A DNA stretch of 56,047 nucleotides from assembly GCA_021162655.1 (NCBI GenBank), contig JAGGYI010000138.1, forward strand, positions 1 through 56,047. The letters run 5' to 3'. Positions within the stretch are counted from its first letter, which is position 1. Every line of letters begins with the position of its first letter. Made by a program: the position numbers and the translations under genes. Below are positions 7,314-48,810 of this stretch, in pieces. The notes below the pieces were generated by a model. The model was given only the letters and a program-made list of their open reading frames with translations, was not told the origin of the DNA and did not search any database. The stretch is from Anaerolineae bacterium. GTDB lineage: Bacteria > Chloroflexota > Anaerolineae > UBA1429.

Positions 7314-7532
7314 AAGGCTCCATTCTGCAACATATGAACCGCTCTCCTTTGCATTATACGGACAAAGAGCGACAGTCCAAAGCGCCAATATACAGCAGCT
7401 CGGCACCTGCTAGATTCCCGGTCTCAAAAGACCCTGGCAGAGAGGCCGGTCTCGGAGAGAAGGAAATTCACCAGAGGCGAGGAAAGGTTTTTTGTCCTTC
7501 CGTGGGGGAGCTCACCCCTACGCTCTGCCATT

Positions 7533-7561
7533 TTGACAGCACCACCTTGCCCATGGATACT
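7533..7561 (+). promoter_or_regulatory. candidate sigma-70-type promoter for the HAD genes
   Basis: TTGACA (7533..7538), 17-nt spacer, GATACT (7556..7561). The -35 hexamer coincides with the TTG start used by the ORF track, which argues for the downstream ATG 7596 as the real start. Confidence 0.3.
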
Positions 7562-7595
7562 ATCGAGGCACATTGAATCCGCACAGGTGGAAGCT

Positions 7596-10005: not shown

Positions 10006-10030
10006 AGTGGCTCCCAGGGGAAGCTACCCT

Positions 10031-11402
<1,372 letters not shown>

Positions 11403-31425: not shown

Positions 31426-31485
31426 GCGGGGCATTGGTTCTCCGCTCCCATCCTGGGCGGCCACATCGAAAGGGAGGTCCATAAA

Positions 31486-33614: not shown

Positions 33615-33636
33615 CGAGGTAGAAGGGAGCCTCTAG

Positions 33637-34365
33637 ATGTCTCGCTCTTGCCGCCGTGGGCTCGCCATACTGGGCCTGATTCTGGTTTGGATAGCCATCT
33701 CGGCCTGCTCCTGCAGCAGCCTCTTTAGCAAGGCACCCAGCAAGCCTCCCCAGGGAGCGCGCGCTCAGAGAGTGCCTGGAGAGAACGTGAACCGCCCCAC
33801 TGCGAACTTGCCTGTGAGGCCAAGTCCTCCAAGCACCGCAAAAATAGCAGCCACCGCTGTCAAAGCCGCGGCCACTGCTATCCCCCAGGCCTCTGCGGCT
33901 GCCACAACGCTCTCCAGCGCCAAAGATTTGGACAAGTTCCTCAAGCAGGCCACTGCCGGGCAGAGCTTCTCAGTGGAGATCTCGGAGGAACAGCTGAACA
34001 CTTTTCTTGCTGGCAAAACATTCGAACAGGAAGGAGTCAAGATCGAGGACATCCGCATCACCTTAGGGAATGGGGAGATAACCCTCCATCTCAAAGCAAC
34101 CTCCTCCGAGATGAATCTTAGCTTGGGGCTGACAGTGCGCGGCATCCCCAAGGCAATAGATGGACAAGCCTATCTGCGCATCACAGACGTCGAGCTAGAT
34201 TCCTCTGTCAGTGGTTTTAACAAGCTCGTCGCCAAGGGGGCCATCGACAAACTCGTTGAAGAATACTCCACCTCTCAGGGGGTCCCTCTTCCCAGCGAGA
34301 ACATCTACTATGAGGAAATCCGCGTCACCCCCGGCAAGCTCTACATCAAAGGACACGTCCGTTAA
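33637..34365 (+). CDS. putative lipoprotein / secreted protein, unknown function
   Basis: Signal peptide with a lipobox-like ISAC (MSRSCRRGLAILGLILVWIAISACSC). Ala-rich linker followed by a ~130-aa domain. Confidence 0.55.
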   Translation: MSRSCRRGLAILGLILVWIAISACSCSSLFSKAPSKPPQGARAQRVPGENVNRPTANLPVRPSPPSTAKIAATAVKAAATAIPQASAAATTLSSAKDLDKFLKQATAGQSFSVEISEEQLNTFLAGKTFEQEGVKIEDIRITLGNGEITLHLKATSSEMNLSLGLTVRGIPKAIDGQAYLRITDVELDSSVSGFNKLVAKGAIDKLVEEYSTSQGVPLPSENIYYEEIRVTPGKLYIKGHVR

Positions 34366-35873
34366 CCACTATATCCCAACGCTCGCAAGCCTTGTAGTAT
34401 GGCCTCGTGATCGCTCCAGGGATGCTCAACTGTGCCAAAACACATCGAGCGCTCATGCCCCTTGCCAGTGACGATGACCACGTCCCCTGGCTGTGCCATG
34501 CTCAGAGCTTGGGCAATGGCCTCCGCTCGGTCGGGCACTCGCCAAAAGTCCTGGCCTTCTTGGCAGCCTGCCTGAAGGCACCCCTGGGCAATCTCCTCAA
34601 TGATCTGCTCCAAAGGCTCGGTGCGGGGATCCTCGGCAGTGATAAAGACGCGATCTGCCAACTGCCCAGCAATCCGCCCCATCCAAGGGCGTTTGGCTCG
34701 GTCGCGCAGGCCAGCACAGCCAAAGACGACGCTCACCTTTCCTTGGGCAAGCTGACGCGCGGTGCGTAGGGCGTTCTCCAAAGCGTTTGGGGTGTGAGCA
34801 AAATCTACGATCACAGTGAAGGGCTGGCCCCGATCGATGCGCTCCATCCTCCCCGGCACTCCTCTCATCGCAGAAATTCCCTGCCGGATGGCCTCCATGG
34901 GCAGCTCCAAGGCATAACCCACACTCACTGCCGCCAGAATGTTGTAAACGTTATAACGTCCTATCAAAGGAGAGAAGAGGGATAGTATCCGGCCACCCAG
35001 AGAAACGACCAGGCTCAGCCCTGAAGGCCCTTCCTGAATCTCTTCGGGCCGTACCTGGGCAGTGCGCCGCAATCCATAAGAGATGTATAGATCGGCCGGG
35101 AAAGCGCGCAAATAATCATAAGAGGGGTCATCGGCATTGAGCACCGCCACTTTTTTCATCCCCGGCTTGCACAACGAACGGCCCAGAGCGCGAAAAAGCA
35201 GCCCCTTGGCCTCTCGGTAGGCTTCATAGGTCTTGTGGTAATCTAGATGCTCGTGGGTAATGTTGGTGATTACCGCCACGTCAAATTCGCAGGCAGCCAC
35301 ACGATGCTGGGCCAACCCGTGGGAAGTCGTCTCCAACACGGCATACTCCATCCCCCGAGAGACCATCTCTGCCAAATAAGCCTGCACCTCGGGAGCATCG
35401 GGAGTGGTAGTGTGAAAGCCAGTGGGCACCTCTTGCCCACCAATGAACGCGCTCACCGAATCCACCGAGCCAGTGGCATGCCCTGCAGCCCGCAAAATCG
35501 CCGAGATGAGCCGCACAGTAGTCGTTTTGCCATCGGTGCCCGTCACCCCGATGACCCTGAGCTGACGCGCTGGAAACCCCTGAAGCGCTGCATGGAGGTA
35601 AGCAAAGGCCTCTCGTGAATTCGGCACCAACACCGTTGGGGTTCCCGTCAACTCTGGCAAAAGGCGCTCAACGACACAAGCCACCGCCCCCGCCTGAAGG
35701 GCATCCCCAACAAAGCGATGCCCATCCACCGAAACCCCAGAGATAGCCACGAAAAGATCCCCAGGTGCCACCTGGCGAGAATCACAAACGACGTGCTCTA
35801 TCTGCACCGGCCGCCAATGGAGCCGCTCCGCCTTGGGCAACGCATCGACTAGCTCATCCAGAGAAACCACCAT
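34362..35873 (-). CDS. murE: UDP-N-acetylmuramoyl-L-alanyl-D-glutamate--diamino-acid ligase
   Basis: Mur ligase P-loop GVTGTDGKTTT. Full three-domain length. The position of the DNPR specificity motif reads EDPR (Arg retained), so diamino-acid specificity is not resolved. Confidence 0.9.
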   Translation of the reverse strand: MVVSLDELVDALPKAERLHWRPVQIEHVVCDSRQVAPGDLFVAISGVSVDGHRFVGDALQAGAVACVVERLLPELTGTPTVLVPNSREAFAYLHAALQGFPARQLRVIGVTGTDGKTTTVRLISAILRAAGHATGSVDSVSAFIGGQEVPTGFHTTTPDAPEVQAYLAEMVSRGMEYAVLETTSHGLAQHRVAACEFDVAVITNITHEHLDYHKTYEAYREAKGLLFRALGRSLCKPGMKKVAVLNADDPSYDYLRAFPADLYISYGLRRTAQVRPEEIQEGPSGLSLVVSLGGRILSLFSPLIGRYNVYNILAAVSVGYALELPMEAIRQGISAMRGVPGRMERIDRGQPFTVIVDFAHTPNALENALRTARQLAQGKVSVVFGCAGLRDRAKRPWMGRIAGQLADRVFITAEDPRTEPLEQIIEEIAQGCLQAGCQEGQDFWRVPDRAEAIAQALSMAQPGDVVIVTGKGHERSMCFGTVEHPWSDHEAILQGLRALGYSG

Positions 35874-35930
35874 ACCCCTCTCCCTTTTGCCTGTTCCCTC
35901 TCAACTCTACCCAGGAGCCTCCCAGGCGTC

Positions 35931-35962
35931 AAAAAAGGCCCCGCGCCTTTGCATGCGGGGCC
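35931..35962 (-). terminator. rho-independent terminator ending the hydrogenase gene string
   Basis: On the minus transcript: GGCCCCGC, 10-nt loop, GCGGGGCC, then UUUUUU (plus A6 at 35931..35936). It lies 24 nt downstream of the polyferredoxin stop. Confidence 0.8.
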
Positions 35963-35985
35963 TCTATGGAGACAATGAAAGAACT

Positions 35986-36885
35986 TTATTCCTCTGCTCC
36001 CATCAGGAGACGGTCAAGCACTGCCTTGCGCCGCTTCTGCTGAGCCTTGACATCATATTCGCGAACCACTTCGCGGAAGGAGACCAACTTTTCCAATGCC
36101 TTAGCCCAAGCCCCCGATTCAATCGGCGTGTGCACAAAGCCCGTGCGCACAATGCGAATGGCTCCCTCCACCGGGCAGACCCGCTCGCAAGCCCCACAGA
36201 AAAGGCAGAAGCGCTTATCCACCGCCACCTTCTGGCCATCATACGTAATGGCATTGGTAGGACAAGCATCGACGCAAGCCTGGCAGCCCTCTGGGCAGAG
36301 AGAGGTGTCCAGAAAAACTCGGCCTTTGTAGGGCTTGGTTACTGTAAAGGCTCCCTCTGGCCCTTCTTCCATACAGCGAGTACAGTTCACGCAAAGGCCT
36401 TTATCCACCTGCACGTTCTTGACTGCCACCACCTGGCCCTGAGCATCTCGCTCAATATCGGCGCTGATCGCCCCCACTGGGCAATTCTCGATATAAGAAA
36501 TATCTGTAGTAGCCTCGCAGGCCTCTTCATCCACTTTATTAACCCGAATGAGCATGGGGAAGGCCTCTCCCTTGATCACCGGGATCTCGGGTTGCCCATT
36601 GATCATCATCGAAAGGGCATGCATGGGGCAGGTTACCACGCATTCTCCACAGAAGCTGCATTTCTCCTCATCGATATCCACACGTGGCTTGGCCACCAAG
36701 CGCCCCTCCTCGACCACCGGTTCCGAGAGCGTGATGGCCTCGTGGGGGCACACTATGGCACACGTGCCACAGCCACAACACCTCTCATGATCAACCGACA
36801 ACTCGTAGCGCCGGGTGATCATGGGCCGCAAAAGGGTCAAGGTCGTGGCCGTCTCTCGCTTGATGGTTTTTCCTCTTGTAGGCAT
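35986..36885 (-). CDS. polyferredoxin-like iron-sulfur protein (MvhB-like)
   Basis: Four canonical CxxCxxCxxxCP motifs (CCGCGTCAIVCP, CSFCGECVVTCP, CPEGCQACVDACP, CLFCGACERVCP) plus two degenerate ones. Starts 17 nt after the hydrogenase large-subunit stop. Confidence 0.8.
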   Translation of the reverse strand: MPTRGKTIKRETATTLTLLRPMITRRYELSVDHERCCGCGTCAIVCPHEAITLSEPVVEEGRLVAKPRVDIDEEKCSFCGECVVTCPMHALSMMINGQPEIPVIKGEAFPMLIRVNKVDEEACEATTDISYIENCPVGAISADIERDAQGQVVAVKNVQVDKGLCVNCTRCMEEGPEGAFTVTKPYKGRVFLDTSLCPEGCQACVDACPTNAITYDGQKVAVDKRFCLFCGACERVCPVEGAIRIVRTGFVHTPIESGAWAKALEKLVSFREVVREYDVKAQQKRRKAVLDRLLMGAEE

Positions 36886-36902
36886 CTTCTCACCCTTTCA
36901 CC

Positions 36903-38372
36903 CTATTTCTCATTGCGGCGAAGCTGGAGCACCAAATCCCCCTGATGATCGAGAACTGAAACCTCCAGGTCCATCTCCCCTGGCAGGGCATGCGTCGCAC
37001 AGGCAAAACAGGGGTCATAAGCTCGGAAGGCCATTTCTATGCGGTCAAGCAACCCCTTGGTAATCACCTTCCCTCCGCTGATCAACTCCTGCGCCGCTCG
37101 CTTGATCGACATACAGATGGCCCCATGGTTGTTCGTCGTCCCCACAATGAGGTTCACCTTTTTGAGAATACCCTTCTCGTCGGTGATATAGTGATGCGTC
37201 AACGTGCCACGGGGAGCCTCCACCGTGGCCACTCCCTCACTAGGAGTCTCAGTGGGAATAGTGCGAATATTGGGATCGGTGATCTCTGGATCCTTGGCCA
37301 GCTCCAGCACCCGCTCACCAGCGTAGAGTATCTCGATAAGGCGCGCCCAATGGGTGGCTAGCGTCGCATGTACGGGCTTGCCCCCCATATAGTCGTAAAA
37401 CTCTTCATAAGCTTCTTGTGCAAGGGGAGTCGCCATGCCATCAGCCACGTTCAAGCGCCCCAAGGGCGTAGCACGATAGATCCCGCTATCCATGCCATCC
37501 ACCAAGCCCTTCCAGCCAAACTTTTTCAGATAGGGGAATTTGAGATAGGTCCAGGGCTCCACATGCTCAGCGATGTGCTTGGTGTACTCCTCAGGACGAT
37601 ACTTGGCCACTTCATTGCCCTCTACATCGACCACCCGAATGAGCCCATCGTAAAAGTTCACCCGGTTCTTCTCATCTACTAGCCCCATGTTGTGGGTATA
37701 GTGGAGATAGGCCTTGCTAAAGACCATATCCCGGAATTCATCACTCCCCAGGACGGCCTCTCGCCAAAGCTCGAGGGAAAACGTGCCAAACTCCACAAAG
37801 TGCTCTCCTAACTCGATAAGGCGTTGCTGCATCTCGGGGGTAACCCCCTTGGCTACCCCTCCTGGCAAGGCCATAACCGGATGGACGAACCGGCCTCCCA
37901 ACATGGCGACGAGTTCATGGGTCTCCTGGAGGTGCTGAATAATTCGCTTGCCAATCTTGAGGCCCACCTTGCTCACCAGCCCCAGGATGTTTCGCTGCGC
38001 CGGATCTGCATCGGGGCCAACGAAAAAGTCTGGCCCAGAGAGGACGAAAAAGTGGGTCGCATGATCGCCAGAGACGAACGCATTGTAAGCCAACTCGCGA
38101 ATCTTGACCGCCGCCGGAGGAGGCTGGACTTTAAAGACGGCATCCCCTGCCTTGGCTGCCGCCATATGGTGTGCCATAGGGCAGACGCCACAGATGCGCT
38201 GGGTAATCCGAGGCATCTCCTCTACTGGACGTCCCTCACAAAAGGCCTCAAAGCCTCGAAACTCGGGAACCTGAAAGTAAGCATTGGCAACATCCCCTTT
38301 TTCATCCAAAAAGATGGTGATCTTGCCATGCCCTTCCAAACGCGTGATGGGATCTATAACGATACGCCTCAC
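36903..38372 (-). CDS. mvhA: [NiFe] hydrogenase large subunit, group 3c (MvhA-like)
   Basis: N-terminal MRRIVIDPITRLEGHGKI.. L1 motif RICGVCPMAH. C-terminal DPCFACATH followed by a 28-aa tail (maturation-protease type). The GTG start forms a GTGA overlap with the small-subunit stop. Confidence 0.92.
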   Translation of the reverse strand: MRRIVIDPITRLEGHGKITIFLDEKGDVANAYFQVPEFRGFEAFCEGRPVEEMPRITQRICGVCPMAHHMAAAKAGDAVFKVQPPPAAVKIRELAYNAFVSGDHATHFFVLSGPDFFVGPDADPAQRNILGLVSKVGLKIGKRIIQHLQETHELVAMLGGRFVHPVMALPGGVAKGVTPEMQQRLIELGEHFVEFGTFSLELWREAVLGSDEFRDMVFSKAYLHYTHNMGLVDEKNRVNFYDGLIRVVDVEGNEVAKYRPEEYTKHIAEHVEPWTYLKFPYLKKFGWKGLVDGMDSGIYRATPLGRLNVADGMATPLAQEAYEEFYDYMGGKPVHATLATHWARLIEILYAGERVLELAKDPEITDPNIRTIPTETPSEGVATVEAPRGTLTHHYITDEKGILKKVNLIVGTTNNHGAICMSIKRAAQELISGGKVITKGLLDRIEMAFRAYDPCFACATHALPGEMDLEVSVLDHQGDLVLQLRRNEK

Positions 38373-39394
38373 TGCTCAACCTCCTCCTCACTCCCGTCCG
38401 CCTGAGACGCACAGATTCGGCCCGCCTCTTCAGGGTTCGCCTTGAGCTGCTGGAGAAACGAATCAGCAAAACTAAAGCGATAGAACGTCCCCAATGGATC
38501 CACAATGGTAGAAAGAACCTGGCGGATCTCCGCATCACTCTTGCCCTCAAAGCTGGCAACGATGGCGCCCAGCAAGGCCGCTCCCTGATCCACCACACCA
38601 TCGGGAGGGCCATAACAGCCTCGACAGGGCATGTTCGCCTCGATGCAGAGAGCTCCGCAGCCTGCATGGGTCGCCGGGCCTGCACAGAGGATGCCCTGCT
38701 CCAACAGACACCGATCGGGGTCTGGAACGATCTCATGAGGGCGGAAGAAACGCTCCACTCGAATCTTTCCCTCGCGTTTGCGCGGGCACTGATCGCAGAC
38801 CGTCCTACTATCCACCCCCAAAAGGCCCCCCCTGGACGGGAGTTTATTCTCTATAATGGCCGTCATCACCTTCCACACCTGCTCATAATGCGGAGGGCAA
38901 CCCGGCACTTTGTAATCTACCGGCACAACCTGCGCCAGAGTGCGCACCTGATTGCAGAGACCAGGAAGTATCAGCTCCCCCTCTGGCATCCCAAAGCGAC
39001 GCTGAGGGAGAACCTTCTCTGGGTTCACAGTGGAGGGGTTCTCAAACATGGCGCGGTTGAGGGCATAATCTATCCCCTTGATATTGCTCAAGCTAGGGAT
39101 ACATCCCTCCATCGAGCAAGAGCCAAAAGCTACGAGAACCTTGCTTTTGCGCCGTAGCAGACGGGCGATGTGCTCATCCTCCTCCGTACGAATGGAGCCA
39201 TTGAAAAGGGTCACATCAATAGCCCCGTCCTCCATGGCCTCCACGTCATCGTATTTGAAATCGGTAGCCGCCGGCCAAAAGACAATATCTGCCACCTGGG
39301 CAAGTTCCAAAAGGTGCTCGCCCAACTCGACGATGGCGATGTCACAGCCACCACAGCTCGAGGCCCAATAAACAGCTAAATTGAGTTTACCCAT
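38369..39394 (-). CDS. mvhG: [NiFe] hydrogenase small subunit (MvhG-like)
   Basis: Trimmed to ATG 39394, preceded by GAGGAG. MGKLNLAVYWASSCGGCDIAIVE.. C-terminal Cys-rich cluster region (CDQCP..CLLEQGILCAGPATHAGCGALC..PCRGCYGP). Confidence 0.85.
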   Translation of the reverse strand: MGKLNLAVYWASSCGGCDIAIVELGEHLLELAQVADIVFWPAATDFKYDDVEAMEDGAIDVTLFNGSIRTEEDEHIARLLRRKSKVLVAFGSCSMEGCIPSLSNIKGIDYALNRAMFENPSTVNPEKVLPQRRFGMPEGELILPGLCNQVRTLAQVVPVDYKVPGCPPHYEQVWKVMTAIIENKLPSRGGLLGVDSRTVCDQCPRKREGKIRVERFFRPHEIVPDPDRCLLEQGILCAGPATHAGCGALCIEANMPCRGCYGPPDGVVDQGAALLGAIVASFEGKSDAEIRQVLSTIVDPLGTFYRFSFADSFLQQLKANPEEAGRICASQADGSEEEVEQ

Positions 39395-39426
39395 ATTTCT
39401 CCTCGCCGATGGCAAATGACAGAACT

Positions 39427-40419
39427 CTATGCTACAACGGGCACCGAGGCTTTGATCTCCTCTACCATCTCCCGCACAAGCCTGGGGAAGAGGAAACGAT
39501 CCAGCGAGCCCGACTCGGCAAAGCGTACTCGACTCTTGGCGATGCCCAGTTGTTCCAGCATCTGCTCCAAGAGGGCCACCTTGCTCCGCCCCAAGTAGGT
39601 ACCACGTTGATAGTGGCACTCTCCTTCCTTGCACCCCACCACGAGCACACCATCAGCTCCCTTGGTGAGGGCCATCAAGATCATCGCCGGATCTACCCGA
39701 CCTGAACAAGAGAGGTTGACGATGCGGAGCTGATCGCTCTCGAGCCCCCGGATCTTTTCCCACTCACGATCGGAGTGAATGCTCCATTGACAGACAAAAG
39801 CCAGGATACGGGGTTCCTCTGCTCCTCCTTGAAGGTACCCGGGCTTTTCAAGCCAGCCACCTGCCCCCATCCGCGAGATCAGCTCACGATCGCTGATGGA
39901 TTCGAGGTTCATCGCCCCAGAGGGACAAGCAGCCACACAGATTCCACACTTCATGCAAAGCGTCTTGGTCACCTGAGCTACTGTGCGCTCCTCACCATCT
40001 ACCACCTTGGTCACCCTCTCGATGGCCTCATAAGGGCATGCCCGAGTACAGACGGCACACCCTGAGCAAATCTGCTCATCCACCTCAGGGAAGGGCCCTG
40101 GCGGCTCATACCCCTCGCGGATGGCGATATTGCGGATGGCCTTCATCACCTCAGAGATGTGAATCTGCTTAGGACAGCGAGGGTAGCACAGATCACAAGC
40201 CGAGCATTGCCAGATCTCCTCGCTCGAGAGCACCTCCTCACGTAGACCCAGCCCCGCCTTGTGGAGAATCAACCGGGGATTGAAGGAAGGGTCAAAGCGC
40301 CGCACCAAACAGGTGGCCGCACATGTGCCACAAGACCAACAGGTGATGAGATGCTCTCCGCCGGGCTCAGCCATCACCTCCTGAACAAAGGAGCGATCCA
40401 GCTCGTCCGACCGAATCAT
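39427..40419 (-). CDS. fusion of HdrC-like 4Fe-4S dicluster domain, 2x[4Fe-4S] ferredoxin and MvhD-like domain
   Basis: CWSCGTCAATC..CSACDLCYPRCP (HdrC-like). CSGCAVCTRACP..CMKCGICVAACP (ferredoxin). C-terminal ILAFVCQWSIHSD..LSCSGRVDP..VVGCKEGECHY (MvhD/FlpD-like). ATGA overlap with the hdrA stop. Confidence 0.8.
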   Translation of the reverse strand: MIRSDELDRSFVQEVMAEPGGEHLITCWSCGTCAATCLVRRFDPSFNPRLILHKAGLGLREEVLSSEEIWQCSACDLCYPRCPKQIHISEVMKAIRNIAIREGYEPPGPFPEVDEQICSGCAVCTRACPYEAIERVTKVVDGEERTVAQVTKTLCMKCGICVAACPSGAMNLESISDRELISRMGAGGWLEKPGYLQGGAEEPRILAFVCQWSIHSDREWEKIRGLESDQLRIVNLSCSGRVDPAMILMALTKGADGVLVVGCKEGECHYQRGTYLGRSKVALLEQMLEQLGIAKSRVRFAESGSLDRFLFPRLVREMVEEIKASVPVVA

Positions 40420-42908
40420 GCCATCACCTCCTTCTCTACCTCTTGCTCCTCTTCATCCTTGAGGAAAGGAGCCATATGAGGTGTCATCATCCACCGTCGC
40501 AAGCGTTTTTCAATCGCCGGACGAGCCCTCTCCGTCTCGGCGCGGAGCTCCTCTTTATCAAAGCTGGCCAGTTTCTCGCTCATCTCGGTGATGACTCGGG
40601 CGTACTTTTCACCTTCAGCCGCCGAGATCCACTCCACCCGGAAGCGCTCCGGATTGATGCCTAGCCGTTCCAGCGTGCGTGGCACTCGGCTGAAACGCTT
40701 GGCCGCCACCTGCTGGCCCGTGATATAGTGGCAATCCTGGGGGTGGCACCCAGAGACGAGGACCATCCCTGCTCCTCGGCGGAAAGCCTCGAGGATGAAC
40801 TCCTGGTCCATACGCGCCGAACACATCACCCGAATGCCTCGCGAGTTAGAGGGGTACTCAAAGTGGCTGGTACCCGCGCTATCGGCGCCACCATAGCTGC
40901 ACCAGTGGCACATAAAGACGAGGATCTTTTCTTCGGGATTCTCCCGCAAGAGTTCGCGAATCTGGGCGACGATCTGAGCATCGGTAAAGTGATCCTGGGT
41001 GATGGCATCATGGGGGCATTCGGCCGCACAGCCACCACAGCCATGGCATTTAGCCTGGATAATTTGAGCGGGCTGCCCCGGCTCCACAATGATGGCATTA
41101 TAAGGGCAGGCCTGGGCACAGATGCCGCATTTCTTACCCTGCGCACTGATACAAAGCTCAGGCCAGACCTTGGCAACGATCGGCTCGATCTCCCATGTAT
41201 CGGAAGTGAGAACCCTAGCCGCCCGCGACGCCGCTGCACTTCCCTGGGCCACGCTCGCAGGGATATCCTTGGGCCCCTGAGCAGCACCCGCGAGGAAAAC
41301 GCCATCGCTGGGCGAATCCACCGGACGCAACTTGGGGTGATACTCCATATAGAAGCCGCTGGGGCTACGCGAAAGAGCCAACACCGAAGAAAGGCGCTCC
41401 GTATCAGCCTGGGGGATGGCCGCTGTCGAAAGAGAGACCATCTCCACCTCAAGCTCGATGACCTCACCCAGCTCCTGATCCTCCACCTCGACAAAGAGGT
41501 TATGGGTCTCGGGGTCCTCGGTGATCTGCGAAGGACGCCCACGGATAAAGCGAATCCCTGCCGCTCGGGCACGGTTGTAGAACTCTTCATAGCCCTTCCC
41601 CGGAGTACGGATATCCATATAGAGGATAGTAATATCCATGTCCGGATAGGTCTGATGGAGAAGGAGGGCATTCTTGATGGTATACATGCAGCAAAAGCCC
41701 GAGCAATACTCCATAAAGCGAGAATCGCGAGAGCCCACGCACTGGATCATGGCAATGCTCTTTGGCGTCTTACCATCCGAAGGACGCACAACTCGCCCTA
41801 CCGTAGGCCCAGACGAGTTACTTAGGCGCTCAAGCTCCATGGCTGTGATGACATTCGGATAGACGCCATAACCGTATTCGGGGATCACGGCGGGGTCAAA
41901 AGTCTCAAACCCCGTCGCCACAATAATCGAACCCACATCGAGTTCAACAAACTCGGGCTCCTGCGAGAAGTCGATAGCATCCAGCTTACCGCAGGCCTCA
42001 ACGCACTTGTAGCAACGGATGCAGTGGTCAATATCGATCGCGTAAACCAAGGGAACCGCCTGGTCATGCGGCACATCGATGGCTTTGCGCGGGGCGATAT
42101 CCATTTCAAAACTATTGGGCACCTCAATAGGACACACCCGAGCGCACTCCCCGCAGCCATTGCAGCGGTCTTCGATAACATAGCGAGGCTTTTTCATCAC
42201 CTCGACACGGAAATTGCCGATGTAGCCATCAACCTTGGTAACTTCTGAATAGGCCAGAATTTCAATGTTGGGGTGACGCGCCGCGTCAACCATCTTGGGC
42301 GCGAGAATTCAAATGGAACAGTCCATCGTGGGGAACGTCTTGTTGAGCTGAGCCATCGTTCCCCCAATGGACAGATCCTTCTCCACCAAATAGGTATGGA
42401 TGCCCATATCGGCCAAGTCTAGCGCGGCACTGATGCCCGCCACACCGCCACCAATGACCAACGCTTTCTTGGTCACTGGCACGGTAATCATCTGGAGAGG
42501 CGAGACATAGCGCACCTTGGCCACCGCTGCCGCAACCAAATCTTTGGCCTTTTGCAGAGCCCCTTCCGGATCGTGCGCATGCACCCAGGTATCCTGTTCC
42601 CGGATGTTGGCCATCTCCATCAAGAAGGGATTCAAGCCCGCCTCAGCCACACAGGCTCGGAAGGTGGGCTCGTGCATCCGCACGCTACAAGCCGCCACAA
42701 CAACACGGTTGAGCTTGTGCTCGATAATGTCCCGTTTGATCATATTCTGGCCGGGATCACCACACATATAGAGATAGTCCTTTGCCAGAACCACCCCAGG
42801 CAGGTGTGAGGCGAACTCGGCCACCTCCGCAGGATCGATCACACCACCGATGTTGGAACCGCAACTACAAACGTAAACCCCTATGCGCAGTTCCTCGTTA
42901 TCTGCCAT
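40416..42908 (-). CDS. hdrA: heterodisulfide reductase subunit A-like flavoprotein fused to MvhD domain, with in-frame UGA (putative selenocysteine) at 42309..42311
   Basis: ORF-track entries 42309..42953 and 40416..42293 are in one frame, separated only by TGA plus five sense codons. Joined product: [76 protein letters not shown].. Also present: inserted and C-terminal ferredoxin motifs ([44 protein letters not shown]) and a C-terminal MvhD domain ([36 protein letters not shown]). ATG 42908 has AGGAG upstream. Confidence 0.85.
42272..42291 (-). promoter_or_regulatory. SECIS-like hairpin 18 nt downstream of the UGA
   Basis: mRNA GGU(U)GACG-CGGCG-CGUCACC: a 7-bp stem with one bulged U and a 5-nt G-rich loop, spanning +18 to +37 after the UGA. 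An alternative pairing, CGCGCC(+5..+10)/GGCGCG, also exists. Confidence 0.4.
42309..42311 (-). other. in-frame UGA, candidate selenocysteine codon in hdrA
   Basis: Minus-strand reading: ATG GAC TGT TCC ATT TGA ATT CTC GCG CCC AAG ATG GTT GAC. The TGA occupies the position of the second Cys in the conserved HdrA DCS(M/I)C-ILxPK motif. Confidence 0.7.
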
Positions 42909-42951
42909 ACTGTAGCTCCTGAAGGGATAAAACTCGATACACCACCAAGAC

Positions 42952-42988
42952 AAAAAGGGTAAAGGGGAAGGTAAGCTCCCCCTTTACC
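42952..42988 (-). terminator. terminator-like hairpin between the ferredoxin gene and hdrA
   Basis: On the minus transcript, directly after the TAA at 42989..42991: GGTAAAGGGG, 11-nt loop, CCCCTTTACC, then C-UUUUU-G. Confidence 0.5.
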
Positions 42989-43486
42989 TTAACTCTCTTC
43001 AACAAGTTCCTCAAAGAGACGCTGGACAACCTCACGTCGGATCTGCTGCCGTAGGACCTCGGGGGTCGTTACCGAAAGGGCCTCTGTGGGGCAATACTCG
43101 ACACAACGAGGCCCACCCTCCTCATCCTGGCAGAGATCGCAGATCTCAACAACCTTGGTCGCAGGGTTCAGCACGATCGCGCCGAAATCGCAAGCCTCGA
43201 TGCACCAACCGCAACCATCGCATTTGTCCCCATCCACCAGGATGATGCCATTCTCCTCCGAGCGCGAAAGCGCATCACGCGGGCAAGCGAGCACGCAGGG
43301 CGCATCCGCACAGAGGCGGCAAGTGACAGCCAGCATCGTCACCGGCTCAATGCGCACCACTCGAATGCGCGAAAGCGAGGGGTCGAACGTGCCCGTCTTG
43401 GTCATTGAACAGGTGTATTCACATATCCGGCAGCCAATGCACTTGTCGGGATCGCAAACAACGAATTCATAGCCCTTTTCTGCCAT
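42989..43486 (-). CDS. 4x[4Fe-4S] ferredoxin-like electron-transfer subunit (DmsB/AorA/YdhY-like)
   Basis: CIGCRICEYTC, CRLCADAPCVLACP, CDGCGWCIEAC, CDLCQDEEGGPRCVEYCP. AAGGAGG lies 7 nt upstream of the ATG. Starts 2 nt after the AOR stop. Confidence 0.85.
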   Translation of the reverse strand: MAEKGYEFVVCDPDKCIGCRICEYTCSMTKTGTFDPSLSRIRVVRIEPVTMLAVTCRLCADAPCVLACPRDALSRSEENGIILVDGDKCDGCGWCIEACDFGAIVLNPATKVVEICDLCQDEEGGPRCVEYCPTEALSVTTPEVLRQQIRREVVQRLFEELVEES

Positions 43487-43488
43487 GG

Positions 43489-45366
43489 TCAGGCCTCCTT
43501 GCTCGAGGGGTTCGCCACAGGCTCCGCCTCCACGCCGATCTCCTCAGCGATGTCCTCCAACCCTAGCTCGATCAGCGTAGACTTGGGAATCAAGCCATCC
43601 TTTGTCCAACCACGGGCCAAATAGTACTCCTCAATACCCTGCCGAACTTCATCGGGATTGAGAACAGCCCCCTTTGAAGGCCCCTCAGGGATAGGATCCT
43701 CAAAGAGCCGCGCGGGCAGCCAGTCATCCGCCTTGGTCCAACCCTCGCGGATGTTAAAAGCTTTCTTCAGGTTCACCACACGCGTCCCCACCATACGCAG
43801 CTCCTCCGCCGTCATGGGGATACCTGTGGCCATGGTATAGATGCGGGCAACATCCTCATAAAAATTCTCAAAGCAGTTGCGGATGAACTTGCAGAGCACG
43901 AGGCAATCCAAGATTGCGGCAAAGTCCTCCTTCTGGATGATCAATGGCGCCCGGCCCGGCTCCCAAACAAAGCGATCGACGACGCCCTTGATATCCAGCT
44001 CATAAGAGAGCGCCCGGTTATGGCAAGGTCCACGTGCGCAGACGGCCAAACCTATGGCAAAGGTTTTCAGACTACGCACATCATAGCCAGGCATCTCCAG
44101 CCCCTTGACTTGCATGGCGAAATGGTCGCTTCCCTTGCCGACCTTGGCTGCAGCTCGCTTGGTGCCCTCAGCAAGGAGATCTCCGATTCCCTCGCGATAG
44201 GCTATTTTGCGAATGAGCTCGACGGCTGCCTCATCGTTGCCAAAGTGAGGCTCCAGGCCATCAAAATCCTCTTTTGTCAGAATGCCTCGCTCATAGCATT
44301 CCATGGCCCAGCTGACGATCACGCCGGCGCTCATAGCGTCTATCCCTAGCTCATCGCAAAGCTGCACCAGTTTGATGATCGGAGGCAACTCCCCAATGCC
44401 ACAGTTGGGGCCCAGAGCAAAGAGGGGCTCATAGTCCAGACCAATGATAGCGCCCTTGTACTTGCCCTCTTTTACAGCCACCCACTTTTCGCAGCCGATG
44501 GTACAACCTGCGCACCCCACGTCTTTGATCACATAGTGCTCGCGCATGTACTCGCCGCTGACCAGATCAGCATGCTCAAAGACGGTCTCGCGGAAGTTGC
44601 GGGTGGGGAGGACGCCCATCTTGTTCATATTGAGCACGTTTGCCGGTGTTCCCAACGTACGGTACTTGGCCGTTCCAGGCCCCCGGCTCGCCTTGATCAG
44701 CTTGAGCGTCTCTCGCATCAGCCCCTCTGGGTCAGCTACTGTGATCGGATGGGACCCTCGGATAGCGATCGCCTTGATACGCTTGGACCCCATCACCGCG
44801 CCATTGCCTGTACGGCCCACCTGCCGGCCGTCGTTATCGATCGAAGCTATGCGCACCAAGCGCTCCCCTGCAGGGCCGATGGCACTGACGCGAACATTCT
44901 CATCCCCCAGCTTCTCACGGATTGCGCGCTGAGTCTCCATAGTGGTCATCCCCATATAGGGGCTTGCATCAAAGAATTGAACCTCGTCATCGTCGATAAA
45001 GATGACGACCCAATCGGGAGACTGCCCCTTGATCACAATGCCATCCCACCCCGCCCGGCGGAGCATCTCAGCAAAGTGGCTCCCAGAGAGCGAATCCCCT
45101 ATAAAGCCCGTCAGAGGGGACTTGGAAGCGACGCCATGCTTGGTGCCCACGGGCATGGTTGTGCCGGCAAAGGCGCTGCAGGCAAAGCAAAGCGCATTAT
45201 CCGGCCCCAGAGGGTCGCACCCTTTGGGCGTGTTATCATAGACGAGCCGCGTCGCTAACCCCACACCACCGATGTACTTTTTCAAGAACTCGGGCCCAAC
45301 CTCCTGCACCCAGGTCTTGCGTGTCGTCACATCGATGTGCAGGATCTTCCCAGTGTAGCCATACAT
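43489..45366 (-). CDS. aor: aldehyde:ferredoxin oxidoreductase family (tungsto-/molybdo-pyranopterin enzyme)
   Basis: Trimmed to ATG 45366, preceded by AGGAGG. MYGYTGKILHIDVTTRK..GGVGLATRL.. [4Fe-4S] motif GCAGCTIGCEK. 625 aa, collinear with archaeal/bacterial AOR by eye. Confidence 0.92.
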   Translation of the reverse strand: MYGYTGKILHIDVTTRKTWVQEVGPEFLKKYIGGVGLATRLVYDNTPKGCDPLGPDNALCFACSAFAGTTMPVGTKHGVASKSPLTGFIGDSLSGSHFAEMLRRAGWDGIVIKGQSPDWVVIFIDDDEVQFFDASPYMGMTTMETQRAIREKLGDENVRVSAIGPAGERLVRIASIDNDGRQVGRTGNGAVMGSKRIKAIAIRGSHPITVADPEGLMRETLKLIKASRGPGTAKYRTLGTPANVLNMNKMGVLPTRNFRETVFEHADLVSGEYMREHYVIKDVGCAGCTIGCEKWVAVKEGKYKGAIIGLDYEPLFALGPNCGIGELPPIIKLVQLCDELGIDAMSAGVIVSWAMECYERGILTKEDFDGLEPHFGNDEAAVELIRKIAYREGIGDLLAEGTKRAAAKVGKGSDHFAMQVKGLEMPGYDVRSLKTFAIGLAVCARGPCHNRALSYELDIKGVVDRFVWEPGRAPLIIQKEDFAAILDCLVLCKFIRNCFENFYEDVARIYTMATGIPMTAEELRMVGTRVVNLKKAFNIREGWTKADDWLPARLFEDPIPEGPSKGAVLNPDEVRQGIEEYYLARGWTKDGLIPKSTLIELGLEDIAEEIGVEAEPVANPSSKEA

Positions 45367-45370
45367 ACTC

Positions 45371-45649
45371 TTAACCTCCTGCCTCCACAAACATGAGTAA
45401 AAGTTGTTGTCCATCCTGGGCGGGCATGTCGAGATCTTTGATCACGCGCCTGCCATTGAGGTTCAACATATAGGAAGGGACGAGATCGAAGGTCTCTGGC
45501 ACGATCACCGGCCCCACTAGACGAGGAAAGTGTAGAGCCAGGTAACGTAGCACATCTCGCCACGTCGCCTGGCCCTCTAATTGCACAGTGCATTCGCTTG
45601 TCTGAGCCAAATTGCGCGCTAGCCCCAAAAACTCAACAGTGAGCTGCAT
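45371..45649 (-). CDS. MoaD/ThiS-family ubiquitin-like sulfur-carrier protein (C-terminal Gly-Gly)
   Basis: 92 aa, MQLTVEFLGLARNLAQ.. ending ..LLLMFVEAGG immediately before the stop. The stop lies 4 nt before the AOR start. Confidence 0.75.
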   Translation of the reverse strand: MQLTVEFLGLARNLAQTSECTVQLEGQATWRDVLRYLALHFPRLVGPVIVPETFDLVPSYMLNLNGRRVIKDLDMPAQDGQQLLLMFVEAGG

Positions 45650-45727
45650 CCTCTAGTCCATCTCCAGGTGTTGGCATCCATTGCCACGAAAAAGACTATC
45701 AAGAGTTCCTTTGTCCACTTAAGAGAC

Positions 45728-45747
45728 ATCGTGCTTCTAGGCACGAT
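45728..45747. promoter_or_regulatory. perfect 7-6-7 inverted repeat just downstream of the minus-strand -10 (candidate operator or 5' UTR hairpin)
   Basis: ATCGTGC-TTCTAG-GCACGAT at 45728..45747, about 10-30 nt downstream of the TATAAT at 45757..45762 (minus). Confidence 0.35.
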
Positions 45748-45756
45748 CTATGATAG

Positions 45757-45785
45757 ATTATACAGAAGTTCTTGGCAAAAAGCAA
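45757..45785 (-). promoter_or_regulatory. candidate promoter for the moaD-like/aor string
   Basis: On minus: TTGCTT (45785..45780), 17-nt spacer, TATAAT (45762..45757). This would give a ~100-nt leader before ATG 45649. Confidence 0.5.
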
Positions 45786-45826
45786 GCTGCAAAGGATCCG
45801 CTAAGGGAGATATTTCCAAAAAGCCT

Positions 45827-45855
45827 TTGACACACTTCTTCCCCCTTCTTATAAT
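45827..45855 (+). promoter_or_regulatory. consensus sigma-70-type promoter for the sortase gene
   Basis: TTGACA (45827..45832), exact 17-nt spacer, TATAAT (45850..45855): 12 of 12 consensus positions, 48 nt upstream of ATG 45903. Confidence 0.6.
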
Positions 45856-45902
45856 GAGGAGAATGAAGGGATGGTCCTTTCTATACATGAGGATGTACAT
45901 CG

Positions 45903-46871
45903 ATGGGTTCTGCCTCACGGGCAAAGGAGCTTTCCCTTAAGGAGCTCGAAAGCCTTCTCTTGGAGAAACGCCGTCGCCTCGCCAGATACAAGGTGAGGCG
46001 ATTTGTTGCTGCAGAAAAGGCTTGCCAAGGGCTCGGACGGCGCTCTCCAGAGGATCCTGAGGAACGACCTTTCCCCATGCCAGAAACCTGGCGTGGTGCC
46101 CAAGGGCAAGATCGCTACTTCCAGCCTGGGCGTTTCGCCCCTCTGGAAAAGAACGCTTCACGCAAAGGAAAGCGTTCCAAAGGAGCTCTTCTCCTTCTGG
46201 CGATAGAGATCGCTGCCTTGGTGGGCTTTTTGGGCATCTTTGCCAGCCTATATCTTCGGCTGAAGCCCTTACGACGCCCCCAAACTATACCAACGCCCAG
46301 CACCGTCATGGCTACCCATGCCATCCTCGTCGAGGCAAAGGAGCCACTTCCGACTAGCACACCTCTCCGCCTTCTCCCTGGAGGACGGCCGACGGGGATG
46401 CCTGTTAGCCAAGGCGACCAATCAAGTGAACCCACAAGAGCGCTCACTTTATCACTAGCGGAACCAACGCCCCCGCCGCCGGGCAAGCCTGCCCAGCGCC
46501 TGGTCATCCCCAAGATAGGGGTCGAGGCCCCAGTTGTCGAAGGAGATACCTGGGAAGACCTCAAGAAAGGCATCGGCCACCATCCAGGAAGCGCCAACCC
46601 TGGGGAAAAGGGGAACATGGTCGTCTCAGCACATAACGATGCTTATGGGGAGATCTTTCGCGATCTGGACAAGCTCGAACCAGGGGATGAGGTGCTCGTC
46701 TACACTGAAGAGGGAGCATATCGCTATATCGTTAACCGAGTGGAGATCGTCAGCCCCGACAGAGTCGAGTTTATGGATCCCACCGAGCATCCTGTGCTGA
46801 CGATGATTACCTGCTACCCGTATCTGCTTGATACGCACCGCGTCGTGGTGATAGCAGACCTAGCCGAATGA
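45903..46871 (+). CDS. sortase-family transpeptidase with long N-terminal extension
   Basis: C-terminal catalytic domain: VVSAHND (His), LTMITCYP (TLxTC Cys), DTHRVVV (Arg). One TM helix (ALLLLAIEIAALVGFLGIFASLYL). ~120-aa charged/Pro-rich N-terminal and linker regions. Confidence 0.85.
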   Translation: MGSASRAKELSLKELESLLLEKRRRLARYKVRRFVAAEKACQGLGRRSPEDPEERPFPMPETWRGAQGQDRYFQPGRFAPLEKNASRKGKRSKGALLLLAIEIAALVGFLGIFASLYLRLKPLRRPQTIPTPSTVMATHAILVEAKEPLPTSTPLRLLPGGRPTGMPVSQGDQSSEPTRALTLSLAEPTPPPPGKPAQRLVIPKIGVEAPVVEGDTWEDLKKGIGHHPGSANPGEKGNMVVSAHNDAYGEIFRDLDKLEPGDEVLVYTEEGAYRYIVNRVEIVSPDRVEFMDPTEHPVLTMITCYPYLLDTHRVVVIADLAE

Positions 46872-46898
46872 AATAAACCTCTCGAGGAAAGGAGAGAT

Positions 46899-47171
46899 AT
46901 GAGCAAGAGGAAAAAGCGTTCCCGTTCAGCGGCAGCTCGCCGGAAGAAAAGGCTTGCCACCCAACAGAGGACGGCCGTCCAGCAAACCCAAACCGCCCCT
47001 GTGGCACCCAAAGAGAAAGGACAAAGCAGGGGAAGGCAATCCCGCCAGGCAGCAGCCAAGGTGGATTTTGCCAGCGAGTACCATTACGTGATCAACGATC
47101 TCAAGCGCCTTGCCCTTACAGCGCTGGCCATGTTCGCCACCCTCATCACCTTAGCGCTGGTGCTCCGCTGA
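46899..47171 (+). CDS. small protein with highly basic N-terminus and C-terminal TM helix, unknown function
   Basis: GAAAGGAGAG RBS. MSKRKKRSRSAAARRKKR.. then ..LALTALAMFATLITLALVLR. Confidence 0.5.
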   Translation: MSKRKKRSRSAAARRKKRLATQQRTAVQQTQTAPVAPKEKGQSRGRQSRQAAAKVDFASEYHYVINDLKRLALTALAMFATLITLALVLR

Positions 47172-47909
47172 GGGGAGTACCTCTGTTGAGCTCTCTTGGG
47201 CGTTTTTTCGGCCAAGCAGCGGCCAGGTCAAGGCAAAAACCAATGCCCTCCCCAAAAGAGCGGCCCAGAGGCTGCCCAGGAGGACAAAAAGCAGAGTGCT
47301 CACCCAGTCCAGAGCCCAGGTGAGGGCAATCAGTAAACGTCGCGAGGAATGTGGCACACGGATATGCTCTCTACTGCTTAGCCAACCCAACCCTCCACGA
47401 AGGAAAAGGGCACACCAAGCTCCCCAATAACTCCCGAGCAGAGGAGCACACCCTGCACGCAAGATCGCCAGAGCGCTCTCTTGGCCTAAAAGACGCAGGA
47501 CCTGGCTGCTCTGTCGGCTCCAAAGAGGGCTATGGGCTCTCCAGAGCTCTGCTTTCTTGGCTCCCAAAAGGAGCACAACGATCCATAGACCCAAGCCCAA
47601 AACGATGCCAAAAGCCTTCCAAAGCTCTGTGGGTGAGCCTCGGGGCAAGCAAAGCCCTACATCCAAAGGGGAAAAGAATCCCTCCACCAAAGCGGCATAG
47701 AGATAAAGAACGGTAAAAAACACTCCCGCTACCTGGCCCAGCAAAGGCCAACCACCCCAAAAGCGCAACCTTAAAAGCCTTGGGTGTGCCCGATCAACAA
47801 ACCGCCAACGGAGGAACGGTCTAAGCCCTCGCACTAGGACCTCTAGCCCCAAATAAAGCCCCCCAGCAGCCAAGGCCATCCACACTTCGGGGCCCATCTC
47901 CCTTTGCAT
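47151..47909 (-). CDS. hypothetical polytopic membrane protein
   Basis: Hydrophobic ORF with 6 or more helices. Start uncertain: ATG 47909 follows AAGGAG, while the ORF track uses GTG 48017, which would overlap a plus-strand TTGACA hexamer. No confident family motif. Confidence 0.45.
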   Translation of the reverse strand: MQREMGPEVWMALAAGGLYLGLEVLVRGLRPFLRWRFVDRAHPRLLRLRFWGGWPLLGQVAGVFFTVLYLYAALVEGFFSPLDVGLCLPRGSPTELWKAFGIVLGLGLWIVVLLLGAKKAELWRAHSPLWSRQSSQVLRLLGQESALAILRAGCAPLLGSYWGAWCALFLRGGLGWLSSREHIRVPHSSRRLLIALTWALDWVSTLLFVLLGSLWAALLGRALVFALTWPLLGRKNAQESSTEVLPSAEHQR

Positions 47910-48066
47910 TGCACTCCTTAGGAGGATCGTTTCCTCGATTGTACGTTCTCCCCAGTCCTTGTCAAAGTTTGCTGGCGGCTCGGCTTTCTCAAGCGCTCTG
48001 CTTTTTGCTTGACACACCTCCCCCCAGGAATGTATGTTATCTACAGTTCAAGGAGGTAAAGGTTCT

Positions 48067-48810
48067 ATGAAGATCGATCTGTCAGGCAAGGTTGCCCTAG
48101 TGACAGGGGGTGCCGCAGGGATCGGCCGGGCTTGCGCCCAGACCCTCGCCCAAGCGGGTGCCCTAGTCGTTGTCGTCGACATTAACCTCCCCGGCGCCCA
48201 AGAGACGATCGACTCCATTGGCTCAGGGCTGGCTCTCCGCTGTGATCTCTCCGACCCCCAAGACGTCGAGGCCATGCGCGACCGCGTTCTCACCGAGATG
48301 GGCAAGGTCGATATCCTCGTAAACAATGCGGGGATCATCTCTTATAGACGGGGAATCGGGGCTGTTTCTCTCGAAGAATGGAATAAAGTTATCGACGTAA
48401 ACCTGCGAGGGCCTTTTCTCGTCTGCCGGGTCTTTATCGAAGAGATGAAAAAGCTTGGTTGGGGCAAGATCATCAATTTCTCCTCGCTTGCAGCCCGCGT
48501 CGGTGGCATCGAAGTGGGCATCCACTATGCAGCCTCCAAAGCTGGCCTCATTGGCCTTACCCGCACCCTCGCCAAAGAGGGGGGTCCTTACGGTATCAAC
48601 GTGAACGCTGTGGCTCCCGGGATCATTGCCACTGAACCTGTCAAGCGACAGATCGCCGGTCACGAGGAGCAGTATATCTCCCAAATCCCCCTCCGTCGAT
48701 TGGGCGAGCCTCAGGATGTTGCCAATGTCATCCTCTTTCTCGCTTCACCTCTCTCAGACTATATCACTGGCATCGTATTGGATATTAATGGTGGAATCTA
48801 TATGGGGTAA
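48067..48810 (+). CDS. short-chain dehydrogenase/reductase (FabG-like)
   Basis: Trimmed to ATG 48067, preceded by AAGGAGG. TGGAAGIGRA; NNAG; catalytic YAASKAG. Confidence 0.9.
   Translation: MKIDLSGKVALVTGGAAGIGRACAQTLAQAGALVVVVDINLPGAQETIDSIGSGLALRCDLSDPQDVEAMRDRVLTEMGKVDILVNNAGIISYRRGIGAVSLEEWNKVIDVNLRGPFLVCRVFIEEMKKLGWGKIINFSSLAARVGGIEVGIHYAASKAGLIGLTRTLAKEGGPYGINVNAVAPGIIATEPVKRQIAGHEEQYISQIPLRRLGEPQDVANVILFLASPLSDYITGIVLDINGGIYMG

Follow-up and report, generated by a model that had tools for sequence, protein, structure and literature searches.

Results and discussion

The 56,047-nt contig JAGGYI010000138.1, analysed here over its whole length and referred to as the window, carries on its minus strand a gene for an HdrA2-type flavoprotein that is interrupted by one in-frame stop codon. 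From 42908 to 40416 the gene has 830 codons in a single frame, and translation gave a lone internal stop, TGA, at codon 200 (42311..42309); residue numbers below are those of this frame. A first-pass annotation made from the sequence had reported that two open reading frames (ORFs), 42309..42953 and 40416..42293, both on the minus strand, share a frame and are split only by this TGA and five sense codons, and had read the TGA as a probable selenocysteine (Sec) codon. The ORF list confirmed the common frame and the coordinates, and the junction, read from the sequence, is gac tgt tcc att TGA att ctc gcg ccc aag ATG. The features of the locus are collected in Table 1.

For domain searches of the readthrough product Cys was substituted at codon 200. 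The product consists of an N-terminal iron–sulfur (FeS) domain, a flavin adenine dinucleotide (FAD)/thioredoxin-reductase domain, two ferredoxin domains and a C-terminal MvhD domain (Pfam: FlpD, Fer4, FAD). The MvhD domain (residues 662-781) matched MvhD/VhuD chains in the PDB with E values of 1e-34 to 1e-38, and its Cys residues are encoded as Cys, not Sec. The product scored 1103 bits against NCBIfam NF040770 (HdrA2), for which the curated cutoff is 1100, with residues 8-786 aligned to positions 1-774 of the 777 in the model. It was also matched by NF041778 and NF041891, and residues 5-656 matched PDB 5ODC_A, the HdrA of Methanothermococcus thermolithotrophicus, with E=6e-261. Only the readthrough product attains the NF040770 cutoff; neither fragment could do so on its own. 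It is thus only when read as a single frame that the gene makes sense. There are 17 places in the window at which a TGA links open stretches of 80 codons or more on either side, and the codon-200 TGA is the only one of these with flanks shown to be halves of one protein.

HdrA has been recognised as a selenoprotein since the first methanogen genomes. In alignments with PDB chains, residue 200 falls opposite Cys197 of 5ODC_A and of the HdrA chains of 8RVU/8RVV; in 9SFI_A the corresponding residue 197 is entered as 'X'. This chain is from a model of Hdr-Vhu-Fwd of M. maripaludis, in which the residue is described as Sec197/U197 (PMC13518236). Sec197 and a Cys there coordinate a density between cluster A3 and FAD, a possible selenylsulfide relay according to the authors, who call its role unresolved (PMC13518236). 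In crystal structures, Cys197 of one HdrA protomer ligates the N-terminal [4Fe-4S] cluster of the other protomer (PMC9012536). HdrA (NF040770) is among the selenoprotein families listed in a 2026 review, which gives its motif as CxxU (PMC13188914), and among bacteria HdrA selenoproteins have been known from Deltaproteobacteria and Clostridia since 2004-2006 (PMC1794560). Among the best 120 protein clusters, all 66 full-length homologues have Cys in the residue-200 column. The gene thus has what is expected of the HdrA selenoprotein family: homology over both the FAD and the FeS domains, UGA at the second position of C-x-x-C/U, and Sec/Cys pairing across homologues. The first-pass annotation had stated that an uninterrupted HdrA is obtained on readthrough, that the TGA falls on the conserved Cys of DCS(I/M)C and that this Cys is Sec in Methanococcales HdrA. 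The end-to-end NF040770 match, the pairing with Cys197 of 5ODC_A and X197 of 9SFI_A, and Sec197 of M. maripaludis bear out all three; the Sec-containing deltaproteobacterial homologues that it mentioned also exist, with identity of position given by the family motif only.

A scan of one genome per GTDB species was used to follow the TGA through related organisms. The best 80 loci (L001-L080), all from metagenome-assembled genomes of Chloroflexota/Anaerolineae and including Pelolinea, Ornatilinea, Brevefilum and Mesolinea, gave together with the window 81 orthologues, with 79 distinct sequences around the TGA. Codon 200 is TGA in 81/81, and TAA, TAG or a sense codon in none. The frame around it is open for 818-899 codons in 79 of the 81 and for 726 and 729 codons in the remaining two. 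Median pairwise amino-acid identity is 0.73 on the N-terminal side of the TGA and 0.68 on the C-terminal side, and at conserved 4/6-fold residues the median third-position identity is only 0.41, near saturation. Since the TGA has been kept despite this, it has been retained through extensive divergence. Cys197 is invariant in all 81 orthologues and is encoded by both TGT and TGC.

The best 120 protein clusters fall into two classes. The full-length proteins have 807-889 aa and 59-71% identity to the query; the other 54 clusters are fragments of 616-629 aa with 77-100% identity and a query coverage of 73-75%. All 54 begin MVDA(A/S/V)R, i.e. the gene callers cut every one of them at the same place. 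The Sec-form group is pure, its largest internal distance (0.253) being smaller than the smallest distance to any Cys form (0.301). The same TGA is found in Joint Genome Institute (JGI) contig 3300005098 Ga0072683_114170 (L084), where the gene calls are 199 aa and 625 aa. These data agree with three further points of the first-pass annotation: that the gene is not a pseudogene, that the genome is Chloroflexota-like (the 80 best genome matches are all of class Anaerolineae) and that pipelines call two fragments.

Two side observations were made on these relatives. L084 aligned with 30416..48562 of the window over 18.15 kb with 99.0% identity (169 mismatches, 9 gaps) and the same gene order; this independent metagenome contig represents a distinct sister population of the window organism, and hints at the sample type that this organism inhabits. 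In L049 (uncultured Anaerolineales CAZSIG010000018.1) there is a second in-frame TGA at 6158-6160, equivalent to Cys721 of the window (40748..40746), which replaces the first Cys of the MvhD-domain motif and is followed by 115 conserved codons. Either a second Sec site or an error may account for it.

The 15 nt from TGA to ATG contain five variable positions in the 79 distinct sequences. Each of the five is the third position of its codon, and the alternatives seen there are without exception synonymous: ATA/ATT/ATC, CTC/CTT/CTG, GCN, CCN and AAA/AAG. As the ILAPK codons change synonymously only, they must be translated in frame. No Shine-Dalgarno-like sequence is present in the sequence before ATG206.

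A check for a bacterial Sec insertion sequence (SECIS), proposed with the first-pass annotation, revealed a candidate hairpin just 3' of the UGA. With offsets counted from zero at the U of UGA, RNAalifold gave the pairs G20-C40, G21-C39, U23-A37, G24-C36, A25-U35, C26-G34, G27-C33 and C28-G32, with a mismatch of U22 and N38, and a consensus loop G29-K30-C31 (73 distinct sequences). Where N38 is A (e.g. L073) the mismatch is closed to a U-A pair. In L029 a change of stem U35 to C co-occurs with A38 and an alternative register, which is the sole hint of compensation. The minimum free energy (MFE) of the hairpin lies between -9.2 and -14.3 kcal/mol in 81/81, and its motif occurs once in the window against 0.01 occurrences expected by chance.

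The conservation of this block at the nucleotide level is extreme. Offsets +18 to +37 are essentially invariant, 4-fold sites included, and read AUGGUUGACGCG(G/U)CGCGUCA. Third positions are fixed as U in Val (78/79), C in Asp (79/79), G in Ala (79/79), G in Ala/Ser (79/79) and U in Arg (78/79), whereas those flanking the block vary freely in the same 79 distinct sequences. Over the six codons that start at residue 206, normalised synonymous codon entropy falls to 0.017, compared with 0.76 +/- 0.12 for the gene. No other of the 250 windows in the gene is as low, and each of the seven lowest overlaps residues 203-214. Codons 207-211 have a third-position identity of 0.986, as against 0.41 gene-wide.

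The hairpin was compared with the bacterial SECIS (bSECIS) model, using the four constraints in Fig. 2 of PMC13188914, and fits all of them. The model asks for a loop of 3-9 nt on a stem of 4-16 bp; here a 3-nt loop is closed by an upper stem of 6 bp, with 2 bp more past the 1x1 mismatch. The loop pattern N1-G-[G|U]-N-N2 is present as C28-G29-(G/U)30-C31-G32, position 30 being G in 69, U in 10 and A or C in none of the 79 distinct sequences. The spacing from UGA to the apical loop is 26 nt (offsets 3-28) within an allowed 16-37 nt, and the MFE is below the cutoff (<= -7.5 kcal/mol) in 81/81. The only polymorphic position of the hairpin is this G/U toggle, despite the Ala-to-Ser swap that it causes. 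This Ala/Ser polymorphism corresponds exactly to the two bases, G and U, that the bSECIS consensus permits as the second loop nucleotide.

In the Cys-form relative L083, TGC is followed by ..AUGGUGGACGUGAGCAAAAAU.. and the hairpin is absent. The Sec clade encodes M-V-D-A-(A/S)-R at this place (GAC GCG KCG CGU; 42274..42293, minus strand) and the Cys forms M-V-D-V-(G/S)-K. The difference between D-A-(A/S)-R and D-V-(G/S)-K indicates, therefore, that the RNA signal has shaped the protein sequence.

Several results weigh against the assignment of UGA200 to Sec. The stem is practically without covariation, which is because the stem is invariant; support for the structure comes from the synonymous constraint and the fit to the model. 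The 81-nt fold after the TGA is no more stable than shuffled sequences (z=0.53), and several other 21-nt windows of this GC-rich gene fold equally well; thermodynamics alone does not single out the hairpin, and the comparative analysis of synonymous sites is needed. A search of Rfam had no match above the gathering thresholds and, with E<=10 allowed, only noise near the site, although Rfam appears to hold no bacterial SECIS model. No tRNA-Sec was found by ARAGORN in the window or in the flanks of L001-L060 (only tRNA-Val, in some flanks). SelA, SelB and SelD were not found by Pfam among the ~46 ORFs of the window, nor did tblastn with the E. coli proteins give a match in the window or the 80 loci with +/-4 kb flanks. 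Failure to find sel genes in 56 kb of a genome of several Mb is uninformative either way. In favour of the assignment, the Sec-specific elongation factor SelB has been described in Anaerolinea thermophila UNI-1 and in single amplified genomes of Anaerolineales (PMC4959059), and three of the Anaerolineales single amplified genomes encode a Sec-containing formate dehydrogenase, FdhA (PMC4959059; see also PMC5736913). A search for other selenoprotein genes among the TGA-bridged ORF pairs of the window yielded none that was convincing.

Taken together, the data make it very likely (probability about 0.93) that UGA200 encodes Sec in one 830-residue HdrA2-type flavoprotein. We infer that SelB and tRNA(Sec) are present in the genome, that Sec and not another residue stands at position 200 and that this residue has a redox role; the probability is not set higher because the Sec machinery of the host genome belongs to this inferred part. 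The hairpin 20-40 nt past the UGA, GGUUGACGC-G(G/U)C-GCGUCACC, which also encodes M-V-D-A-A-R-H, would act as a bacterial SECIS and recruit SelB-GTP-Sec-tRNA(Sec) as the ribosome arrives at the UGA, and Sec would be inserted in place of termination. The product would bear C197-x-x-U200 in its FAD (thioredoxin-reductase-like) domain, and by equivalence with Sec197 of M. maripaludis U200 would belong to the low-potential side of flavin-based electron bifurcation, the ferredoxin branch.

The possibility that the gene is genuinely split was considered. Translation would stop at UGA200 and restart at AUG206, and the resulting 199-aa and 625-aa proteins would assemble into HdrA. There is an ATG five codons past the TGA, gene callers output both fragments, and the conserved hairpin could in principle serve translational coupling. 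A restart is nevertheless very improbable, as strict purifying selection has allowed the codons between TGA and ATG nothing but synonymous changes (79 distinct sequences), there is no Shine-Dalgarno-like sequence ahead of ATG206, and the conserved Cys/Sec and the ILAPK strand would be lost from the middle of the FAD domain, a region that runs without a break in every solved HdrA structure and in 66/66 full-length homologues. The stop is, moreover, always TGA in the 81 orthologues, though their true stops use all three codons (TGA 51, TAG 15 and TAA 14 in the 80 with a complete 3' end). Readthrough of UGA200 without selenium, by a near-cognate Trp or Cys tRNA or by Cys carried on tRNA(Sec) when selenium is scarce, is about as improbable. 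The identity of the inserted residue is not readable from sequence alone and many homologues function with Cys at this site, but a single mutation from TGA to TGC or TGT would have fixed Cys and 0/81 lineages have made it. Nor would selenium-free readthrough be expected to be followed by an invariant hairpin that fits the SelB-dependent bSECIS model; elsewhere in the window TGA works efficiently as an ordinary stop, and Sec is experimentally established at the equivalent position in M. maripaludis (PMC13518236).

A lone in-frame stop is also the usual signature of a sequencing or assembly error, or of an inactivating mutation that has left a pseudogene. Here either can be given next to no weight: the TGA is common to 81 independent assemblies, including the 99.0%-identical but distinct JGI contig, and both halves are open and conserved with no second lesion in 80/81, the exception being L049, where the TGA is again at a conserved Cys. 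The Sec-form sequences, furthermore, make up a coherent and diversified clade (0.253 within, against 0.301 to the Cys forms). Genome-wide reassignment of UGA (code 4 or 25), for which there is nothing specific in favour, is just as hard to credit. The 46 genes of the window end in 16 TGA, 16 TAA and 14 TAG, TGA being the stop of hdrA2 itself and of 51/80 orthologues, and in no other TGA-bridged ORF pair of the window were the two parts found to belong to one continuous protein.

Table 1 Features of the hdrA2 locus in the window, contig JAGGYI010000138.1
Feature	Position	Strand	Evidence or remark
hdrA2-type gene, complete	40416..42908	-	830 codons; Sec proposed at codon 200; own stop TGA 40418..40416
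In-frame UGA, proposed Sec codon (residue 200) of the CxxU motif C197-S-I-U200	42309..42311	-	
Cys197 codon TGT, partner Cys of CxxU	42318..42320	-	Translation
Five sense codons ILAPK, UGA to first downstream AUG; also UGA-SECIS spacer	42294..42308	-	
Proposed bacterial SECIS hairpin, GGUUGACGC-GGC-GCGUCACC	42271..42291	-	8 bp, 20-40 nt downstream of UGA
Shine-Dalgarno-like AGGAG	42916..42920	-	7 nt upstream of ATG 42908
MvhD/FlpD domain, HdrA C-terminal fusion, residues 662-781	40566..40925	-	PF02662, E=2e-46
Tungsten-type aldehyde:ferredoxin oxidoreductase, WorL-like	43489..45414	-	Pfam AFOR_N/AFOR_C; PDB 1AOR, E=6e-119; also 9MQX_D
Small FeS subunit, WorS-like	42989..43486	-	Pfam Fer4_11; PDB 9MQX_E, E=7e-31
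HdrC-like N-terminal FeS + 2x[4Fe-4S] ferredoxin + second MvhD domain	39427..40419	-	Pfam; TIGR03290/NF045873
Mvh/Vhu-type [NiFe] hydrogenase small subunit	ORF 38369..39634	-	Pfam; NCBIfam VhuG
Mvh/Vhu-type [NiFe] hydrogenase large subunit	36903..38372	-	Pfam; NCBIfam VhuA; DPCFAC end
Polyferredoxin (MvhB/FwdF-like), last cluster gene	35986..36885	-	Pfam, NCBIfam

The hdrA2 gene belongs to a compact cluster on the minus strand. The pair of WorL- and WorS-like genes, encoding an aldehyde:ferredoxin oxidoreductase (AOR) and its small subunit and having no part in the recoding signal, lies immediately upstream of hdrA2 in 68-75/80 loci and also in the Cys-form relative L083 (3571-5972), and this conserved adjacency suggests a functional link between WorLS and HdrA2. 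A reading of the AOR as a BamB-type enzyme (class II benzoyl-CoA reductase) was rejected: its closest matches were Pyrococcus AOR and WorL, and BamB was the most distant PDB match. Between worS and hdrA2 there is a strong terminator-like element (42958..42988, minus strand), in which CTTTTTGTCT comes after a GC-rich stem of 13 bp and from which the start of hdrA2 is only ~50 nt away; it may be a terminator, an attenuator or an mRNA-processing site. Close relatives have strong hairpins of unrelated sequence in the same place, and distant ones (Pelolinea and others) have none. Because of this element, co-transcription of hdrA2 with the AOR genes is uncertain.

Downstream, the gene at 40419..39427 overlaps the hdrA2 stop by 4 nt and has a counterpart in 80/80 related loci. 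The hydrogenase module that follows is present in ~40/80 loci. In the rest (L002 at 7260-10207, also L003, L009, L010, L035 and ~35 others) three genes stand in its place, encoding two Cys-rich FeS proteins and an FAD/NAD(P)-binding, PyrK/AsrB-like subunit. What lies between the Fer4/MvhD gene and the gene for the polyferredoxin is thus an exchangeable module. The ORF of the hydrogenase small subunit starts at GTG 39634, is 421 aa long and overlaps the upstream gene by ~200 nt; the JGI call on the sister contig is 341 aa and homology begins at about residue 83, so the true start is probably near 39394. An NiFeSe-type Sec in the large subunit was rejected, as its end, ..DPCFACATH.., has Cys. 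Both MvhD domains of the cluster likewise have Cys, and HdrA would be the sole user of Sec in the cluster. The methanococcal and deltaproteobacterial hdrA-vhuD-vhuA clusters differ in that Sec is not confined to HdrA.

Pfam and NCBIfam searches found no HdrB with a CCG domain in the cluster (45414..35986); in the Cys-form relative L083, separate HdrC and HdrB (CCG) genes follow hdrA2 (8525-10041). With HdrB absent from the cluster, the protein is therefore named as an HdrA2-type homologue, and 'CoB-CoM heterodisulfide reductase' is a family name here, not a function. It is possible, though on the gene order still a tentative suggestion, that the Sec-HdrA2-MvhD protein forms the flavin bifurcation core of an uncharacterised complex in which a WorL/WorS-like AOR is wired to the exchangeable electron module. 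This module, with the polyferredoxin after it, would be an Mvh-type [NiFe] hydrogenase here and, in roughly half of the relatives, an NAD(P)H-type oxidoreductase. The complex might then be an Hdr-family counterpart of the Bfu-based WorABCSL, without HdrB and with Sec on the low-potential branch.

What has been found is a large mis-annotated clade of a known selenoprotein family, and the mechanism is not new. Recoding of this kind is well known, and automatic annotation routinely reports such a gene as two pieces. Literature searches found no paper on Sec-HdrA in Anaerolineae specifically; use of Sec in this class is already documented for FdhA (PMC4959059). The mis-annotation affects at least 80 species-level genomes and 54 of the best 120 protein clusters in public databases, where hdrA appears as fragments of 199 aa and ~620 aa. 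In a lineage abundant in digesters and sediments, such splitting distorts metabolic reconstructions, pseudogene counts and selenoproteome surveys. Sec at residue 200 would imply a selenium requirement for hydrogen and electron-bifurcation metabolism in this clade. The gene is also an unusually clean natural case of a coding-region SECIS shaping the protein sequence, and the clade provides a large set of Sec/Cys orthologues at an HdrA residue whose role was still debated in 2026 (ligand of the N-terminal cluster or selenylsulfide relay).

Comparison with known systems

In fold and domain order the protein resembles methanogen HdrA over residues 5-656, with Sec197 in M. maripaludis (PDB 9SFI/9T1S) and Cys197 in M. 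thermolithotrophicus and M. wolfeii (5ODC and related entries). The UGA is exactly at this position, in ..KTFPT-DC(S/A)(I/M)-U/C-ILAPKMV.., and as in M. maripaludis the CxxU lies beside FAD. The candidate SECIS, unlike the archaeal elements, which are in the 3'-untranslated region, is within the coding sequence directly after the UGA. HdrA is, furthermore, fused to MvhD here, the cluster has no HdrB (CCG) gene, and since the host is not a methanogen CoM-S-S-CoB is unlikely to be the physiological acceptor. The protein corresponds to NF040770 from end to end, including the MvhD fusion and the CxxU motif, but its score is barely at the cutoff and the heterodisulfide reduction in the name of that family is unsupported by the gene context here.

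The bacterial Sec-HdrA proteins described previously are from Syntrophobacter, Syntrophus, Moorella, Carboxydothermus and other Deltaproteobacteria and Clostridia (Zhang et al. 2006, PMC1794560). Their genes also cluster with genes for MvhD/FrhD-like proteins and [NiFe] hydrogenases (PMC1794560), and equivalence of the Sec position is through the family motif only. They belong to other phyla, and in their hosts Sec often occurs in FrhD/MvhD and in the hydrogenase large subunit as well, whereas here it would be confined to HdrA.

The SECIS of E. coli fdhF (GGUUGCA-GGUC-UGCACC, taken from NC_000913.3) is likewise an intra-ORF hairpin just 3' of the UGA, and the hdrA2 element resembles it. The hairpin in hdrA2 shares with it and with the bSECISearch consensus the frame 5'-GGUUG...CA(N)CC-3', a U left unpaired in the 5' arm, a loop that starts G-G/U and a spacing of 16-37 nt. 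It differs from the fdhF element in its longer upper stem (6 bp, compared with 3+3), in its loop of 3 nt (5 if the closing C-G pair opens) instead of 4 nt, and in the start of the loop, which is 8 nt further from the UGA (offset 29, compared with 21).

For the cluster as a whole the nearest parallel is WorABCSL, the electron-bifurcating tungsten aldehyde oxidoreductase of Acetomicrobium mobile (PDB 9MQX, PMC12318220). In both, a WorL-like AOR and a WorS-like FeS subunit are found beside a module for flavin-based bifurcation. The module in WorABCSL is BfuABC, whereas the neighbouring module here, whose link with the AOR is one of gene adjacency, is of the Hdr family: HdrA2-MvhD with the Mvh hydrogenase.

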